IMG/VR virus record: IMGVR_UViG_643348547_000005
Location: 1 to 31,496 of that record
DNA length: 31,496 bases
Source of the DNA: a virus
Lineage: Duplodnaviria > Heunggongvirae > Uroviricota > Caudoviricetes
Strand: one strand, 5' to 3'
A program made the position numbers and the translations under genes. Positions 3,701 through 31,081 of this stretch are shown here, piece by piece. Each line of letters begins with the position of its first letter. The first letter of the stretch is position 1. Under the pieces are notes generated by a model. That model had not been told where the DNA came from. It saw only the letters and a program-made list of their open reading frames with translations, and ran no database searches.

Positions 3701-5224
3701 TTGATAATCAGCGAAATGCAACGCAAGCTTGCCACATGGGCAGCCACCGATCCGTCCCTACGGATTCAACGGCTGCTGCGTCTAATAACACAACCAGAAT
3801 GGCTGGCTGAAGCGGCGCGGATCACGCTTTCATCAAAGGGGGCCCATACCCCCGGCGTTGATGGCGTGAACAAAACAATGCTACAGGCCAGACTGGCTGT
3901 TGAGCTGCAAATCCTCAGGGATGAATTACTCTCAGGCCACTACCAGCCCTTGCCCGCCAGACGGGTTTACATCCCTAAAAGCAACGGCAAACTGCGACCA
4001 CTGGGTATCCCCGCGTTGCGGGATCGTATTGTTCAGCGGGCCATGCTGATGGCGATGGAGCCGATATGGGAGAGTGATTTTCATACGCTCTCATATGGCT
4101 TCCGGCCTGAGCGCAGTGTCCACCACGCGATCCGCACGGTGAAATTACAGCTCACAGACTGCGGTGAAACCCGGGGACGCTGGGTGATTGAAGGCGACCT
4201 GTCCAGTTACTTCGACACCGTACATCATCGACTGCTGATGAAGGCTGTACGCCGCAGGATCAGTGACGCACGTTTCATGACTCTGCTGTGGAAAACCATC
4301 AAGGCGGGACATATCGATGTCGGTCTCTTTCGGGCGGCCAGTGAAGGTGTGCCACAGGGCGGTGTTATATCGCCGCTATTATCGAACATCATGCTGAATG
4401 AGTTCGATCAATACCTGCATGAGCGCTACCTGAGCGGGAAAGCCAGAAAAGATCGGTGGTACTGGAATAACAGTATCCAACGGGGCCGAAGTACGGCGGT
4501 CAGAGAAAACTGGCAGTGGAAACCCGCGGTGGCGTACTGCCGCTATGCCGATGATTTTGTCCTCATCGTCAAAGGCACCAAAGCACAGGCGGAAGCCATC
4601 AGGGAGGAGTGTCGGGGTGTGCTCGAAGGCAGTCTGAAACTCAGGCTGAACATGGATAAGACTAAAATCACCCATGTTAATGACGGCTTTATCTTTCTGG
4701 GGCACAGGATCATTCGCAAACGCAGTCGTTATGGCGAGATGCGAGTGGTCTCAACGATCCCGCAGGAGAAAGCCAGAAACTTCGCCGCATCGCTGACAGC
4801 ACTGTTATCAGGCAACTACAGTGAAAGCAAAGTCGATATGGCTGAACAACTCAACCGAAAACTGAAAGGCTGGGCCATGTTCTATCAGTTCGTTGATTTT
4901 AAGGCCAAAGTCTTCAGTTATATCGACCGTGTCGTGTTCTGGAAGCTGGCTCACTGGCTGGCCCGCAAATACCGTACAGGTATCGCTTCCCTGATGAGGT
5001 GGTGGTGTAAATCACCGAAACCGGGTCAGAGCAAAACGTGGGTTTTATTTGGTAAAACCAATCACGGCAAGCTCAGCGGCGAAATACTGTACCGGTTGGT
5101 GGGGCAAGGCAAGAAGCTGTTCCGCTGGCGGCTACCCGAAGGTAATCCCTATCTGAGGACGGAGACCAGAAACACGTATACATCGCGCTTTACAGAAGTG
5201 GCAATGGCGTTCGCCAGCATTTAA
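3701..5224 (+). CDS. group II intron-encoded protein (reverse transcriptase / maturase)
   Basis: 507 aa; RT motifs including the catalytic YADDFV (…AYCRYADDFVLIV…) and upstream LRPLGIPALRDRIVQ / PQGGVISPLLSNIML blocks; C-terminal maturase-like region; lies inside intron domain IV. Confidence 0.9.
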   Translation: MIISEMQRKLATWAATDPSLRIQRLLRLITQPEWLAEAARITLSSKGAHTPGVDGVNKTMLQARLAVELQILRDELLSGHYQPLPARRVYIPKSNGKLRPLGIPALRDRIVQRAMLMAMEPIWESDFHTLSYGFRPERSVHHAIRTVKLQLTDCGETRGRWVIEGDLSSYFDTVHHRLLMKAVRRRISDARFMTLLWKTIKAGHIDVGLFRAASEGVPQGGVISPLLSNIMLNEFDQYLHERYLSGKARKDRWYWNNSIQRGRSTAVRENWQWKPAVAYCRYADDFVLIVKGTKAQAEAIREECRGVLEGSLKLRLNMDKTKITHVNDGFIFLGHRIIRKRSRYGEMRVVSTIPQEKARNFAASLTALLSGNYSESKVDMAEQLNRKLKGWAMFYQFVDFKAKVFSYIDRVVFWKLAHWLARKYRTGIASLMRWWCKSPKPGQSKTWVLFGKTNHGKLSGEILYRLVGQGKKLFRWRLPEGNPYLRTETRNTYTSRFTEVAMAFASI

Positions 5225-5286: not shown

Positions 5287-5787
<501 letters not shown>

Positions 5788-5829
5788 GTTCACAGATAAA
5801 ACACTCTCCAGGAAACCCGGGGCGGTTCA

Positions 5830-6260
5830 CTGAAGCATTCTGGGCTTTGAAAGAGCGCCCGAACATCGATGTTCAGCGTGTCACATATGAAGGTGGCGCG
5901 ATTGATCAGCGAGCGCTTGGCGTTAATCGAGTGAAGATATTTGAACGCTGGAAGGCTATCGACACCAGGGATAAGCGTGAAAAGTTCACGGCGCTAGTGC
6001 CTGCAATTATGGAGGCTATCCGGATTAATGATTTCAGGTTGTATCGTGAAATTACTGACGGAAAAAGCATCACGTGCATGATCGCCGGGTTAAACAAAGA
6101 ATATGGCGATGTGGTGGAGTCCGGACTGCTTTTTGCTGATCCTGCCGTAGTGGATCGTGAAACTGACGAACTTATAGAAAAAGCAATTGCTTTCAAACTT
6201 GCGTATCGACAGCAATACCAACAAAAAGCTGGATGGAATTATGAGCCTTCTTTTTGCTGA
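5830..6260 (+). pseudogene. 5'-truncated hypothetical phage gene (cut by IS629 right end)
   Basis: The frame is open from the IS629 boundary (…EAFWALKERPNIDVQRV…) with no upstream start; the 5847 'start' in the ORF track is a TTG. Function not recognised. Confidence 0.4.
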
Positions 6261-7206
6261 ACGCCCACTGGTTATAAACACGCAGCTGGCAATGAAAATT
6301 GGCTTAAACGAAGCCATTGTTTTGCAACAACTGCACTACTGGTTGAGAGATACCAACTCCGGCATGGAATGTGATGGTGTTCGCTGGATTTATAACACAA
6401 CGGAACAATGGCTGGAACAGTTCCCATTCTGGTCAGAGTCAACGTTAAAGCGCGCGTTTGCAAGTCTGAAAACGCTGGGGCTTTTGCGTTGTGAAAAGCT
6501 CAATAAATCAAAGCGCGATATGACCAATTTCTACACGATCAACTATGGGAGCGAGCTTTTAGATGGTGGCAAATTGAGCGAATCCATCGGTTCAAAATGC
6601 GCCGCTCCATCAGGTCAAAATGACACGATGGAAGAGGTCAAAATGAAACGCTCCATTGGTTCAAAACGACCCAATGTCATCGGGTCAAAATGGCCTGATG
6701 ATCTTACAGAGAATACAACAGAGATTACTACAGAGAATAAAAACACTTTTCGTCCGGAAGCTTCGCAACCGGACCCGCAGACGACTGAACAGGATTTTTT
6801 AACCCGGAACTCCGACGCGGTTGTGTTTAGTGCGAAAAAACGCCAGTGGGGTAGCAGGGAGGATTTGGCGTGTGCGCAGTGGATCTGGGGGCGGATCGTG
6901 GGTCTCTACGAACAGGCAGCCAGTGATGATGGCGAGATCATGCGACCAAAAGAGCCTAACTGGACTGCCTGGGCCAATGACGTGCGCACAATGCGGATGC
7001 TGGATGGCAGAAGCCACAGACAAATTTGCGAAATGTTTGGTCGGGTTCAGCGAGATCCATTCTGGGTAAAAAACATCATGAGCCCGTCAAAGCTCCGCGA
7101 AAAATGGGACGAACTGGTCATCCGCCTGGGACGTTCACCTGTACAGCGTTGTGTTAATCATATTTCTGAACCGGATACAGAAATTCCGCCTGGTTTCAGA
7201 GGATAA
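6241..7206 (+). CDS. lambda-O-like replication initiator (iteron-binding)
   Basis: ATG at 6241 (MSLLFAERPLVINTQLAMKIGLNEAIVLQQLHYW… HTH-like N-terminal domain); five iterons lie inside the coding region and encode a repeated SIGSK-type linker; C-terminal domain follows. Family assignment is by architecture, not by identity. Confidence 0.6.
   Translation: MSLLFAERPLVINTQLAMKIGLNEAIVLQQLHYWLRDTNSGMECDGVRWIYNTTEQWLEQFPFWSESTLKRAFASLKTLGLLRCEKLNKSKRDMTNFYTINYGSELLDGGKLSESIGSKCAAPSGQNDTMEEVKMKRSIGSKRPNVIGSKWPDDLTENTTEITTENKNTFRPEASQPDPQTTEQDFLTRNSDAVVFSAKKRQWGSREDLACAQWIWGRIVGLYEQAASDDGEIMRPKEPNWTAWANDVRTMRMLDGRSHRQICEMFGRVQRDPFWVKNIMSPSKLREKWDELVIRLGRSPVQRCVNHISEPDTEIPPGFRG
6583..6692. repeat. 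iteron array (putative phage ori) inside the initiator gene
   Basis: Five copies of a roughly 18-bp motif (TCCATCGGTTCAAAATGC, TCCATCAGGTCAAAATGA, GAGGTCAAAATGA, TCCATTGGTTCAAAACGA, GTCATCGGGTCAAAATGG) with exact 23-bp periodicity, followed by an A-rich segment (ACAGAGAATACAACAGAGATTACTACAGAGAATAAAAACAC). Confidence 0.7.
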
Positions 7207-7246
7207 GTGTTGATTTCAGGTCATGAGGTAATTTTAAGGGGGACTT

Positions 7247-7669
7247 GTGGCAAAAGTTTTTACACAAGAAGAGCGGGAAAAAATTAAATGGCAGGTGGTG
7301 GAACTCGTGCGCCAGAGCGGCCGTGAGACGTTACGGCAACTGGAAGCTAAAACAGGTGCGACTAGATATCTGATGAGCGTTCTTGCCAGAGAGCTGGTAG
7401 CCAGTGGCGATGTATACAACTCCGGCTACGGGTTATTCCCCTCTGAACAGGCGCGTAAGGACTGGCAAAACGCCCGCAAAAAACTCTCGAGGGCAAAGGT
7501 GAAGAAACCTGCTGTGGTTGATCCGGACCTTATCTGGTCATCACCTGACGGAGAAATACGTCGCTACGACAGTCGCCTAAACATAATCTGTCGCGAGTGC
7601 CGGAAGAGCGAAGTTATGCAGCGCATACTGGCTTTCTATCAGGGTAATTTTCAGGACGTGGCGCAGTGA
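7247..7669 (+). CDS. hypothetical phage protein (HTH-like), in the position of a replication/nin gene
   Basis: 140-aa ORF immediately downstream of the initiator; its stop overlaps the next gene's GTG start (GTGA). Confidence 0.45.
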   Translation: MAKVFTQEEREKIKWQVVELVRQSGRETLRQLEAKTGATRYLMSVLARELVASGDVYNSGYGLFPSEQARKDWQNARKKLSRAKVKKPAVVDPDLIWSSPDGEIRRYDSRLNIICRECRKSEVMQRILAFYQGNFQDVAQ

Positions 7670-8022
7670 GTGCACCGGCAACCATTCTTGATATGTGCTG
7701 TGGCAGCCGCATGTTCTGGTTCGATAAGTCTGACGAACGGGCGATATTCAGCGATATCAGAAAAGAAGGATACACATTACGCAATGGGAGACGCTTGATT
7801 ATCAGCCCTGACATTATCGCAGATTTTCGTGCATTATCATTTGCAGACGCATCTTTTTCGATGGTTGTATTAGACCCTCCGCATCTTGAGAGTGTTGGTG
7901 ATAACGCCTGGATGGGAAAGAAATATGGACGGCTGAATAAAGATGCCTGGCGTGATGATTCGCGACAGAGATTTAAAGAAGCCTTTCGGGTGTTGAGGCC
8001 GCACGGCGTTCTGATTTTTTAA
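7666..8022 (+). CDS. SAM-dependent DNA amino-methyltransferase-like protein, probably truncated
   Basis: Motif I-like ILDMCCGSRMF, motif IV DPPH (VVLDPPHLE), then LRPHGVLIF; only 118 aa and ends in a T6 run, so likely incomplete. Confidence 0.5.
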   Translation: MSAPATILDMCCGSRMFWFDKSDERAIFSDIRKEGYTLRNGRRLIISPDIIADFRALSFADASFSMVVLDPPHLESVGDNAWMGKKYGRLNKDAWRDDSRQRFKEAFRVLRPHGVLIF

Positions 8023-9174
8023 TGGAATGAAACGCAAATACCGGTAAGCCAGATTCTGGCACTGACAGACAGAAAACCTGTTATCTGTCAACGAACAGGG
8101 AAAAAACGATAAAACCCACTGGATTATTTTTATGAAAGAGGCATCCAGTGAGTAGATTCGTAAGGCTACAGATACGTATATCTGAATAATTAAATTCAGT
8201 TCTGTAAATAAAATTTAATCCTTAACCGGATGGATTTCTGCACCCTCAGAACATCAGGAGGCCGCCCGAAAGGGCGGTAGTGAAATGCGAAAGTTCAAAA
8301 TTATTATTGAAACGGGAATAGCTGGTGGAGATTTTGAGGATGTATTCGAAGTGGACGATGACGCAACACCTGAGGAAATTCATGACGGAGCATAAGAAAT
8401 TTTCTTTAACTACTGCAATTACTCATACCACGAAATAAAAGACGATGAGGAAGAACAAAGTGGCTGATTTTTGTTCAGCTAAATATAACATCAGTTTTGA
8501 AGAGCGGGATGAACTATTAATGGACTATGGTGAGTTACGCGGTGGAAGTGCTGCTGATGTCGAATCCTAGCGTGATGACTATGAAGCGGGAAAAACTCCG
8601 GTCGAAGCATATTGTGATGAGTGGGGCGATGAATGAGCGAGATTAATTATCAGGAAGGGCATGAAACGGCGGGGCAAGCAAAACCAGTGGCATGGCGATA
8701 TCGCTACGTGAAAAAAGGCGTTACGGACTTTCAGGGGAAGTAGTGGTCTGGTGACTGGAAATATGTACCGAAAAAAGAGGATTGTAACGACAGGCCGAAC
8801 TATCAAATTCAGGCCTTATTCACTGCCTCACCAGTCCCAGTTACATCAGAAGAACTGGTTAAAGCTGTGCACTTTTATGAACAACTAAAACGCGAAAATC
8901 CACCAACATCCGGCAACTAGATTAATGGATTAACTATGTCGGTTAAACGACCAGCCAACTGAAAAAGCGGAAACCTGATTACAGGTTGCCAGATAAGGCA
9001 ATGAGCTACCTGGCGCGGAACGGACTGATAAGTATGGGGAATGTTTTACGATGAACCTTTAGACTAAAGAGTTTGTAACGCTATGTAAGTGATTTTTTCT
9101 GGTTTAGATATTTATATGTCCGGCCAAATTGAGGTGTGTTTAAATGTAATTGCACATTGATTGTAGGAGGAATA

Positions 9175-9688: not shown

Positions 9689-10912
9689 ATGATCAAAGAG
9701 ACTGTTACGATGAGTCATAAGGAACTCCACCGACTTCAGATTATTCAGGAACAAGCTGCGGCACGCATTGGCATTTCTATTCGGCAGGTTAAACGTCTGG
9801 TGCAACGGTATAGAAATGAAGGGCCTTCTGGTCTGGTTTCCCACCGACGTGGAAAGCGTCCTAATAATTCCTTTTCTACTGAATTCAGAGCAACAGTAAT
9901 TTCACTCCTCAAAGGCCGTTACGCTGATTTTGGACCTACGTTTGCGTGCGAAAAATTGCGCGAGATACACGGTTTATCTTTATCCGTTGAAACTCTCAGA
10001 AAGTGGATGATAGAAGAGGGGTTATGGCGTGAACGCCGTCGTAAAATTGCCCGTATATATCAACGCCGCATGCGACGATCATCTTACGGTGAACTGATCC
10101 AGATTGATGGCTCACCTCATGACTGGTTTGAAAATCGAGGCCCCAGATGTACACTGATCGTTTTCATTGATGATGCCACCAGTGCGTTGATGGCGTTGCG
10201 TTTTGTGCCTGCTGAAACAACCCGGGCTTACATGGAAACCCTCCGGGGTTACCTTAATGATCATGGCGTACCGCTCGCTCTCTACTCTGATAGACACAGT
10301 ATATTCAGGGTAAATAACCCAGAGCGGGAAGGTGAGCTGACCCAGTTCACTCGTGCGATAAAGACACTGGGCATCGAGCCAATCCATGCCAACAGCCCGC
10401 AGGCAAAAGGGCGGGTAGAGCGCGCCAATCAGACACTACAGGACAGGCTGGTCAAAGAAATGCGGCTTCAGAATATCAGTGATATTGAAACAGCAAATGC
10501 ATGGTTGCCGACCTTTATTGAAGCCTATAACAACCGGTTCGCTACGTCGCCTCGTACTACTGATAATGCTCATCTTGATGTGCACCATTCTGAAGAGGAA
10601 CTGGGTTATATCTTCAGCCTACAGGCGAAGCGCGTTCTGTCTAAAAATCTCACTTTCCAGTACAAAAGCAGTGCGTTTCAGGTACGCAGTGAGGGTCGGG
10701 GATATCGACTTAGGCATTCGGTTGTTACTGTATGCGAGAACTTTGACGGTGAAATTAACGTTCTGTATGACGGGAAAGCGCTGGGCTGGGAAAAGTATGT
10801 TGATGGCCCGGAGCCTATACCACTGGATGATGAAAAGAGTGTCCATGAACGAGTGGATAATGCCCGTATTGATTTACGCTCAAAATACTATGTTAAACCT
10901 AAAGCTGACTGA
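9689..10912 (+). CDS. IS481/ISNCY-like DDE transposase (HTH + rve integrase core), 3' end cut by IS600
   Basis: 407 aa; N-terminal HTH (…AAARIGISIRQVKRLVQRYRNEGPSGLVSHRRGKRP…), then rve-type core with IQIDGSPHDW (D), LYSDRHSIF (D) and SPQAKGRVERANQTL (E). The stop codon TGA (10910..10912) is supplied by the first bases of IS600. Confidence 0.6.
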   Translation: MIKETVTMSHKELHRLQIIQEQAAARIGISIRQVKRLVQRYRNEGPSGLVSHRRGKRPNNSFSTEFRATVISLLKGRYADFGPTFACEKLREIHGLSLSVETLRKWMIEEGLWRERRRKIARIYQRRMRRSSYGELIQIDGSPHDWFENRGPRCTLIVFIDDATSALMALRFVPAETTRAYMETLRGYLNDHGVPLALYSDRHSIFRVNNPEREGELTQFTRAIKTLGIEPIHANSPQAKGRVERANQTLQDRLVKEMRLQNISDIETANAWLPTFIEAYNNRFATSPRTTDNAHLDVHHSEEELGYIFSLQAKRVLSKNLTFQYKSSAFQVRSEGRGYRLRHSVVTVCENFDGEINVLYDGKALGWEKYVDGPEPIPLDDEKSVHERVDNARIDLRSKYYVKPKAD

Positions 10913-11311: not shown

Positions 11312-12130
11312 ATGTGTCAGGTATTTGGTGTATCCAGGAGCGGTTATTACAACTGGGTACAGCATGAACCCTCAGACAGAAAACAAAGTGATGAGCGGCT
11401 AAAACTGGAGATTAAGGTGGCACATATCCGCACTCGCGAAACATATGGAACCCGGCGGCTCCAGACGGAGCTGGCAGAGAATGGCATCATCGTTGGTCGT
11501 GACCGACTGGCACGTCTTCGTAAGGAGCTAAGGCTACGCTGTAAGCAGAAACGCAAGTTCAGAGCGACTACGAACCCGAACCACAATCTGCCAGTTGCGC
11601 CAAATCTGCTGAACCAGACGTTCACTCCTACAGCACCAAATCAGGTCTGGGTGGCGGACCTGACGTATGTTGCCACACAGGAGGGATGGTTGTACCTCGC
11701 TGGCATCAAAGATGTTTATACGTGCGAAATTGTCGGCTACGCCATGGGAGAGCGCATGACAAAAGAGCTGACAGGTAAAGCCCTGTTTATGGCGCTCAGG
11801 AGCCAGCGCCCACCTGCCGGGCTAATCCACCACTCTGATCGAGGTTCACAGTACTGCGCATACGATTACCGGGTCATACAGGAGCAGTTTGGTCTGAAAA
11901 CATCAATGTCGCGTAAAGGTAACTGTTACGACAACGCTCCGATGGAAAGCTTCTGGGGAACGCTGAAAAATGAGAGCCTGAGCCACTATCGTTTTAATAA
12001 CCGGGATGAAGCCATCTCAGTAATACGGGAATACATTGAGATTTTCTACAATCGTCAGCGTCGTCACTCTCGTCTGGGGAATATCTCCCCGGCAGCCTTC
12101 AGGGAAAAATATCATCAGATGGCTGCTTAA
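11312..12130 (+). CDS. IS600 OrfB (DDE transposase; probably made as OrfAB fusion by -1 frameshifting)
   Basis: 272 aa from the first ATG; the frame is already open upstream to about 11261, overlapping the orfA end. DDE context: WVADLTYV, HHSDRGSQY, CYDNAPMESFWGTLKNE. Confidence 0.8.
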   Translation: MCQVFGVSRSGYYNWVQHEPSDRKQSDERLKLEIKVAHIRTRETYGTRRLQTELAENGIIVGRDRLARLRKELRLRCKQKRKFRATTNPNHNLPVAPNLLNQTFTPTAPNQVWVADLTYVATQEGWLYLAGIKDVYTCEIVGYAMGERMTKELTGKALFMALRSQRPPAGLIHHSDRGSQYCAYDYRVIQEQFGLKTSMSRKGNCYDNAPMESFWGTLKNESLSHYRFNNRDEAISVIREYIEIFYNRQRRHSRLGNISPAAFREKYHQMAA

Positions 12131-12173
12131 AAAAAGAACAAATGGTTGTGTCCGCTATTGCCAGTACACCTCA

Positions 12174-14871
<2,698 letters not shown>

Positions 14872-28320: not shown

Positions 28321-31081
<2,761 letters not shown>

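Follow-up and report, generated by a model that had tools for sequence, protein, structure and literature searches.

Does a run of short repeats inside a gene for a hypothetical protein mark the site where a phage starts to replicate its genome? The gene in question is located at 6241..7206 on the plus strand of a 31,496-nt sequence from the Caudoviricetes (IMG/VR record IMGVR_UViG_643348547_000005, positions 1 to 31,496), here referred to as the window. Its 966 nt encode a protein of 321 amino acids (WP_000054512), which the Prokaryotic Genome Annotation Pipeline (PGAP) calls a 'hypothetical protein'. The original prediction, made from the letters of the sequence, was that 5 repeats within this gene represent an iteron-type replication origin embedded in the gene for an O-like initiator. 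Based on the analyses presented below, we consider it very probable that the replication origin of a lambdoid phage of the Qin / mEp460 type is located at 6563-6741, within the gene for its own initiator.

Matches to the core sequence G[GT]TCAAAA[CT]G were identified 5 times on the plus strand, with starts at 6590, 6613, 6636, 6659, and 6683, and none was identified outside the array on either strand of the whole 31.5-kb window. The number expected by chance was 0.47 and 0 of 100 shuffled sequences reached 5, confirming that the predicted five-copy repeat is real and far above chance. The cores span 6590-6692, and the distances between them are 23, 23, 23, and 24 bp; the 23-bp period was recovered alike by a repeat search and by Tandem Repeats Finder, and the repeat search detected no second array within 6200-7300. 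Some details of the prediction were modified. The spacing, described as exactly 23 bp, is so for the first 3 intervals but not for the last, and the motif GGT(T/C)CAAAA(T/C)G fits copies 1 and 4 but not copies 2, 3, and 5, and is better written as (A/G/C)G(G/T)TCAAAA(T/C)G.

We also identified a degenerate sixth copy, here called iteron 0, one 23-bp period upstream of the first (GGCAAATTGAGC, core 6569-6576); at the homologous position, mEp460_4F5 contained a good copy, GAGGTCAAAGTGAAC. The complete set of units, to which no strand is assigned, thus consists of iteron 0 at 6563..6583 (ATGGTGGCAAATTGAGCGAAT, 23 bp before iteron 1 and in register with it), iteron 1 at 6586..6606 (ATCGGTTCAAAATGCGCCGCT), iteron 2 at 6609..6629 (ATCAGGTCAAAATGACACGAT), iteron 3 at 6632..6652 (AAGAGGTCAAAATGAAACGCT), iteron 4 at 6655..6675 (ATTGGTTCAAAACGACCCAAT), and iteron 5 at 6679..6699 (ATCGGGTCAAAATGGCCTGAT), which is placed 24 bp from iteron 4. 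When stacked, the copies gave the consensus ATCgGgTCA-AAA-TGAcccGAT, a 21-bp palindrome to which iteron 5 was the nearest. Like that of a lambda-type origin, the array accordingly consists of no fewer than 4 direct repeats, each with an internal dyad, that follow one another at about two helical turns in the central part of the gene. Its 6 units, with a pitch of 23/23/23/23/24 bp, occupy 33-48% of the coding sequence.

The protein encoded by the gene showed a full-length match to the PHROG 391 family, 'replication initiation O-like' (E 1.1e-91, amino acids 17-321 against profile positions 11-298 of 298). A BLASTP search aligned amino acids 147-294 to positions 135-270 of the lambda O protein, with 34% identity over 148 amino acids (E 1e-26). 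These 2 results bear out the prediction that 6241..7206 encodes a replication initiator. The designation 'O-like' is appropriate for the C-terminal domain, which is homologous to that of lambda O, but not for the N-terminal domain, which had no match in Pfam, BLAST, or hhalign comparisons. Thus, the first 115 residues did not align to lambda O in the BLASTP search, no hit to Phage_rep_O (PF04492) was obtained, and an hhalign comparison of the N-domain family profile with residues 1-118 of lambda O gave a probability of 0.1%; the profile search for a lambda O N-terminal domain, suggested along with the prediction as a check, consequently found no match. No Pfam family (at E<=0.1) or NCBIfam family was assigned to the initiator, and profile matches to Slx4 and YLR146W-A were discarded as being under the cut-off. 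The precomputed Pfam column was empty for homologs without an N-terminal extension, with a few entries (PF06254, PF17761) on longer open reading frames (ORFs).

A structural model was built with AlphaFold2 from an alignment of 98 sequences. It contained an N-terminal winged-helix domain of amino acids 1-110 (6241..6570, plus strand), with block-mean values of the predicted local distance difference test (pLDDT) of 82-95 after the first ten residues, and with a predicted recognition helix at amino acids 66-79 that includes S67. The best structural match of this domain, which is presumed to bind the iterons, was the replication initiator of a staphylococcal multiresistance plasmid, followed by DnaB and the N-terminal domain of DnaD (DnaD-NTD). 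The fold is thus of the plasmid-initiator / DnaD-NTD type, and there was no match to the RepA_N family in Pfam. Sequence and profile searches against the PDB recovered only a DnaT tail, a chance match to YteR, and sub-threshold hits to winged helices of the PadR type. The C-terminal domain, amino acids 183-297 (6787..7131, plus strand), was modeled as helices with block-mean pLDDT values that were mostly 66-79 and lower towards amino acid 297, and corresponds to the lambda O homology in the BLASTP search. Between the 2 domains is a linker, amino acids 112-174, for which no confident structure was predicted (pLDDT <50). It is encoded by 6574..6762 on the plus strand, a segment that contains iterons 1-5, most of iteron 0, and the 12-mer repeats described below. 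The origin repeats are in other words encoded in an inter-domain linker, as in winged-helix initiators of the RepA_N / DnaD-NTD type, and judging from the model the origin signals thus seem to have been placed where the protein would tolerate almost any sequence. With its DnaD/plasmid-initiator-like winged helix, its origin-encoded linker, its lambda-O-type C-terminal domain, and a DnaT-like tail, the protein is a mosaic.

To place the array in a comparative context, we selected one genome per species and obtained 80 loci encoding relatives of the N-terminal domain, or 81 counting the window. The loci were from Enterobacterales, Pseudomonas, Acinetobacter, Staphylococcus, Bacillus, Lactobacillales, and Clostridia, and phage records displayed the same taxonomic spread. 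Autocorrelation was calculated as self-match at lags of 10-40 in 90-bp windows over about 6.9 kb per locus. In 51 of the 81 loci, the locus-wide maximum was located 250-520 nt into the initiator ORF at a lag of 21-25, nearly always 23, compared with about 0.5 loci expected by chance from the share of positions and lags. The repeats of the relatives have retained the palindromic GNNCAAWWTGNNC form and vary in sequence, the variants including GGTCAAAATGACC, GGACAATTTGTCC, G(G/T)GCAAATTGCAC, and GGATCAAAATGATCC, among others. A group of loci from Bacillus / Neobacillus (L049, L050, L057, L058, L061, L063, L069, L074, L076) encoded short proteins of 228-285 amino acids with an N-terminal domain that includes S67; no 23-bp array was present at these loci, most of which also had no 12-mers in the gene, and the origin of these relatives may be located elsewhere. 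It was also noted that contigs assigned to Micrarchaeota (L070), Bacillota (L005), and Veillonella (L007) in collections of metagenome-assembled genomes encoded initiators of the bacterial phage type, 2 of them E. coli-like, and the taxon mismatch is probably due to binning contamination.

The predicted recognition helix starts with the residue aligned with S67, and this residue was found to track the third base of the half-site. In raw counts of loci, uncorrected for kinship, S67 was associated with GGTCAA in 19 loci, D67 with GGGCAA or GTGCAA in 17 loci, K67 with GGACAA in 7 of 8 loci, and A or P at this position with GATCAA in 2 loci. N-terminal domains with K and D were 86-90% identical, yet their half-sites differ, while the K67 domains of Enterobacterales and of the Clostridia type were only 39% identical, yet both were associated with GGACAA. 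Such a covariation, as seen in aligned sequences, is what a direct readout of the repeats by the N-terminal domain predicts.

It also argues, at the same level of evidence, against the repeats belonging to the product of a neighboring gene. Both neighbors, the cII/YdaT-like gene upstream and the gene for a winged-helix DUF977/LygF protein downstream, encode predicted or plausible DNA-binding proteins, and the downstream gene of the relatives often matches HTH_24, MarR, or PerC, so that the repeats might be read as operators for one of these. The half-site, however, tracks residue 67 of the initiator itself, and the array stays in place although the downstream gene differs completely among the relatives, where it may encode a loader, a helicase, PerC, or DUF977. 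We therefore regard operators for a neighboring protein as very improbable.

Directly after the iteron array are 3 tandem 12-mers, ACAGAGAATACA / ACAGAGATTACT / ACAGAGAATAAA, at 6706..6741 on the plus strand (consensus ACAGAGAWTACW; 2.8 copies with a period of 12 according to Tandem Repeats Finder), which we predict to be the unwinding or helicase-entry region. Together, the iterons and the 12-mers cover 33-52% of the 966-nt coding sequence 6241..7206 and are contained entirely within it. The predicted A-rich tract following the repeats was thus present, in the form of these 12-mers rather than a plain run of A. Within 6700-6750, 24 of 51 nucleotides on the top strand were A (47%), and the proportion of G and C was about 0.33. 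The least stable 40-bp duplex in the region 5850-7700 starts at 6704 (6704-6743), with a nearest-neighbor free energy of -44.3 compared with a mean of -54.9 and a standard deviation of 3.5. An A/T-rich and easily melted tract is hence located directly downstream of the iterons, as in lambda-type origins, and deviates by 3 standard deviations from the mean. In the protein alignment, the 12-mer segment lines up with the A/T-rich tract of lambda. Taken together, the match to PHROG 391, the lambda-O-type domain at the C-terminus, the place, spacing, and palindromic form of the iterons, and the least stable duplex support the predicted likeness to the ori-in-O arrangement of lambda. It was also noted that a GATC is present at 6700-6703 (TGATGATCTTACAGAG), where the last iteron gives way to the 12-mers. 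This could be a Dam/SeqA site, and GATC(T/C)TACAGAG was seen at this position in many relatives.

The 12-mer was conserved among the relatives. Across the 81 loci, the motif CA[GA]AGA[ATC]T was 56-fold enriched in the 240 nt following the arrays, and at least 2 copies were found after the array in 60 of the 81 loci, Firmicutes included. It was kept irrespective of the iteron type, the C-domain type, and the downstream gene. A literature search on the sequence of the 12-mer retrieved only unrelated papers and no published description of it. In 158 of 174 motif hits the 12-mer was translated as T-E-x-T, and the other 16 were in other frames. We examined codon usage starting from the T-E-x-T peptide motif, so that the codons were not fixed by the DNA search pattern. 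The Glu codon was GAG in 97 of 98 cases, compared with 46% in the remainder of these genes, the first Thr codon was ACA in 99 of 101 cases (24% elsewhere), and the last Thr codon was ACA or ACT in 99 of 101 cases (48% elsewhere). Since synonymous sites are fixed and 16 of the 174 hits are off-frame, the constraint on the 12-mer acts on the DNA.

These data bear on a reading in which the repeats play no role as DNA and merely provide the protein with a flexible, repetitive linker of SIGSK and TENT units. The original prediction had mentioned repeated SIGSK units, and these are indeed encoded by copies 1, 4, and 5 (SIGSK, SIGSK, VIGSK), in accordance with a peptide-level repeat, as is the nearly uniform T-E-x-T frame of the 12-mers. 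Copies 2 and 3, however, are read in the other 2 frames: the successive copies are translated as SIGSKC, PSGQND, EEVKMK, SIGSKR, and VIGSKW, with all 3 frames being used, as 23 is not divisible by 3. Furthermore, the unit is a DNA palindrome, the relatives hold a 23-bp period with differing sequences, the half-site covaries with a residue in the N-terminal domain, and the synonymous positions of T-E-x-T are fixed, with some of the 12-mers off-frame. The case of codon-level repeats, named in the prediction as one that would speak against it, is excluded by the use of 3 frames, by the approximately 23-bp arrays of differing sequence in the relatives, and by the covariation of the half-site. A peptide-level explanation is already close to refuted, and we consider its chances to be negligible.

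Natural variation provided a view of how the array changes. A variant of 290 amino acids in E. coli (P0018) is without 31 amino acids, corresponding to 93 bp (6586-6678 equivalent), which is exactly the stretch between iteron 1 and iteron 5, and it has retained one full iteron and the degenerate one. This deletion looks like the result of recombination between repeats. A relative with four 12-mers was also identified, and the 2 cases together indicate that the arrays expand and contract by recombination.

If the repeats are binding sites for the initiator, they might still serve mainly in autoregulation or copy control, by titration or handcuffing, with the true start of replication elsewhere in the phage genome. 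Plasmid iterons serve both replication and copy control, and our evidence for binding is the covariation, none of the computed results showing strand opening or a start of synthesis at this site. On the other hand, the array is directly adjacent to the duplex with the lowest stability in the region, this duplex is conserved as a DNA element across phyla, no second array is present in 6200-7300, and the layout of iterons and an A/T-rich tract matches those of ori-lambda and of pSK41, in which the Rep boxes within rep are the origin (PMC5703833). A purely regulatory array is therefore unlikely in our view, although less so than operators for a neighboring protein. No DnaA boxes were found in 6000-7400, their count in the window being at chance level, and a DnaA-dependent origin is therefore not indicated.

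How might the host helicase be brought to such an origin? The C-terminal tail of the protein, QRCVNHISEPDTEIPPGFRG (7144..7203, plus strand), resembles the C-terminal end of E. coli DnaT. The similarity to DnaT residues 160-179 amounts to 70% identity (14/20) with a pairwise E value of 9e-8, and the segment is at the extreme C-terminus in both proteins. Identity of the initiator with DnaT was rejected, as the score was 16.2 bits against a cut-off of 201 for the NCBIfam equivalog and only the last 20 residues aligned. The idea that the whole C-terminal domain is DnaT-like was likewise rejected, the BLAST similarity being confined to these 20 residues. The tail explains why the mEp460 gene was labeled 'Primosomal protein I' by the RAST annotation service.

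A tail of the form IPxGFRG, or a close variant, terminated 23 of the 74 ORFs of the family (ORFs of at least 200 amino acids were examined). None of the 21 proteins scanned downstream of ORFs with this tail was a loader or helicase; matches were to PerC, HTH_24, and DUF977. Among the 40 ORFs with other tails, the next gene encoded an IstB/DnaC-like ATPase in 13 cases, lambda P in 3, and a DnaB helicase in 3. No gene for a P-type or DnaC-type loader was found directly downstream of the initiator gene in the window, and neither a helicase-loader nor a helicase gene follows the initiator gene in PhiR42_1, mEp460, or the window. DnaT is described as the adaptor of the PriA-PriB restart pathway, with the manner in which DnaB/DnaC is brought in still open (PMC13377028). 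The DnaT-like tail of initiators that have no loader is a lead on helicase recruitment, not a result.

We infer iteron binding, strand unwinding, and initiation at this origin. By analogy with lambda O/ori-lambda and the RepA_N plasmids, each iteron would be bound by dimers of the N-terminal winged helix. Residue 67, located where the recognition helix starts, would recognize the third base of the GG(T)CAA half-site. The phased iteron array would wrap and stress the DNA, upon which the adjoining ACAGAGAWTACW repeats would melt. The lambda-O-like C-terminal domain and the DnaT-like tail would then bring in the helicase machinery of the host, whose recruitment is proposed because no phage gene for a loader or helicase follows.

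A more far-reaching and tentative possibility is that these features jointly define a self-contained 'solo initiator', in which the ACAGAGAWTACW 12-mers serve as a sequence-specific unwinding or helicase-entry element, residue 67 provides a re-programmable specificity, and the IPxGFRG tail docks onto a host partner of DnaT. The conservation of the 12-mer from Enterobacterales to Firmicutes suggests that the conserved N-terminal domain itself recognizes the 12-mers, perhaps as single-stranded DNA. As part of this proposal, a single residue (S, K, or D at position 67) may set the iteron specificity in a simple manner, and the DnaT-like tail may allow DnaB to be loaded in the absence of a phage loader via the host partner of the DnaT C-terminus. 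In the literature searched, no such three-part system was described.

Several points weigh against the segment 6563-6741 being the origin, or being active. In the literature, we found no experiments in which this initiator family had been tested for binding, unwinding, or autonomous replication. About ten Bacillus-type relatives (e.g. L049, L057, L058, L061, L063, L069) have no 23-bp array within the gene, and such an array is therefore not universal for the N-terminal domain. The loci are phylogenetically related, so that fewer independent events underlie the 51 of 81 loci and the covariation counts than these numbers imply, and the confidence of the model for the C-terminal domain was only moderate. 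Finally, a scan for promoters detected no sigma-70-like site in 5700-7300; since lambda-type origins need nearby transcription, activity in this prophage is doubtful. Terminator-like hits were also recorded within the gene.

The state of the locus can be judged from its context. The window matched a Qin-type prophage located next to rspB. The segment 5800-8100 was 100% identical in E. coli CE10 and N32, and 5827-8100 was 100% identical to PhiR42_1, 97% to mEp460_ev081, and 96% to HannyBb. In the intact PhiR42_1 and mEp460, the gene order is cI, cro, cII-like, initiator, LygF/DUF977, and methyltransferase. The same iteron array is present in mEp460, and our searches on iterons and replication modules retrieved no published study of the origin of a phage of this type. 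Completion of the lytic as well as the lysogenic cycle has been reported for mEp460 (PMC9836094).

In the window, the cII-like / YdaT-family gene at 5829..6260 (plus strand) is without its N-terminus and is preceded by an insertion sequence (IS) of the IS3 type; in the CE10 and N32 records PGAP likewise annotates the gene as 'missing N-terminus', with IS3 upstream. An IS3-type ORF is located at 5341..5787, and the identity to genomes and phages without that IS3 begins at approximately 5827. As IS3 truncates the cII-like gene, the cI-cro region is no longer in front of the initiator gene, and without expression of the initiator, or its supply in trans, the origin probably stays silent.

It could thus be that the origin is real but a dead relic, which can no longer fire in this prophage. 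The truncated cII-like gene, the displaced cI-cro region, the lack of a promoter-like site in 5700-7300, and the further IS-type and group II intron ORFs in the window all fit with this. Set against them is the intactness of the origin and of the initiator gene, with 6540-6770 identical to PhiR42_1 and different from mEp460_ev081 by 2 substitutions, one of which is in the core of iteron 1. Furthermore, the origin could still be fired by read-through from IS3, or if a superinfecting relative provided the initiator in trans. We consider the chances of the origin being dead or alive to be evenly balanced. The relic reading concerns the state of the element and not its identity, and is compatible with the segment being an origin; the original statement that the prophage retains an origin holds for the integrity of its sequence.

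Downstream of the initiator gene, 7247-7669 encodes a DUF977 protein (a 'Ren-like exclusion protein' in PHROG and LygF in phage records). It is followed by an ORF of 118 amino acids at 7666-8022, which matches a PHROG DNA-methyltransferase profile only in the middle part of the profile (positions 52-165 of 229) and which PGAP calls a complete class I S-adenosylmethionine (SAM)-dependent methyltransferase. The early region is broken up by IS-type ORFs (IS3, ISNCY-like, IS600-like, and possibly IS21-like) at approximately 5341-5827, 9689-10912, and 11312-14534, and the end of IS3 adjoins the truncated cII/YdaT-like gene. Two ORFs of equal length, 507 amino acids, with TTG start codons were observed at 3701-5224 (plus strand) and 28902-30425 (minus strand). 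The former reads like a group II intron reverse transcriptase; as no such gene is annotated there in the CE10 and N32 records, the window is from another strain or contains an extra insertion.

With these results, a protein annotated by PGAP as hypothetical becomes a well-supported initiator with an origin mapped to the base, and a decayed Qin-type prophage is seen to still hold an intact pair of origin and initiator. If switched on, or if the initiator were supplied in trans, the origin could amplify the neighboring chromosome. Although Pfam contains no model for the N-domain family, the family is common among phages of Proteobacteria and Firmicutes, and its members suggest a rule for finding origins: at about 320-520 nt into the gene, one would look for a 23-bp palindromic array with ACAGAGAWTACW repeats after it. 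Residue 67 is a candidate specificity residue for engineering orthogonal pairs of origins and initiators, and the tail offers a testable lead on how lambdoid phages without a loader recruit the host helicase.

How does this origin compare with known systems? Lambda O and ori-lambda are similar in that the origin is in the middle of the initiator gene and consists of 4-6 palindromic iterons about two helical turns apart, with a spacing of 20/24/23 bp in lambda versus 23/23/23/23/24 bp here. The lambda iteron, ATCCCTCAAAACGAGGGAT, and the iterons in the window have the design ATC..TCAAAAyGA..GAT in common. In both, an A-rich, purine-skewed, and easily melted tract directly follows the iterons, the C-terminal domains are homologous (34% identity, E 1e-26), and the gene order is cro-cII-initiator. 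In contrast, the N-terminal domain of the initiator has no sequence relationship to that of lambda O, the array here has six units of 21 bp as opposed to four of 18 bp in lambda, and the A-rich tract is made of conserved 12-mers. Moreover, no gene for a P-type loader follows the initiator gene in the window, and a DnaT-like tail replaces the C-terminus of lambda O.

In pSK41, a representative of the RepA_N plasmids, the N-terminal winged helix binds Rep boxes that are central in rep and constitute the origin (PMC5703833). The central domain of the pSK41 Rep protein, encoded by the origin DNA, is a linker, and proteins from which it has been deleted in frame still rescue replication in trans, while the C-terminal domain of RepA_N proteins is host-specific (PMC5703833). 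The likeness is by fold only, with 11% identity in the structural alignment and no match to the RepA_N family in Pfam; furthermore, these are plasmids of Firmicutes, whereas the window represents a phage of Proteobacteria with a C-terminal domain of the lambda O type. In gene 18 of P22 and phage L, distinct repeats within the gene are taken as the origin, and the specificity differs between initiator types (PMC8022706). These phages are also lambdoid and have iterons inside the coding region of the initiator, but their initiators belong to other families and are paired with a gene for a DnaB-type helicase, whereas the module in the window has no gene for a loader or helicase. E. coli DnaT is 70% identical in the last 20 residues and matches nowhere else. 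DnaD and DnaB of Firmicutes, which resemble the N-terminal domain in fold, are host adaptor proteins that are not known to have a cognate iteron array in their own genes. The layout as such is classical and has long been known, with precedents in lambda, in P22 and phage L, and in the RepA_N plasmids; the comparison supports the view that the element is an uncharacterized example of a well-known type of origin, to which the conserved 12-mer, the residue-67 rule, and the DnaT-like tail add 3 leads.

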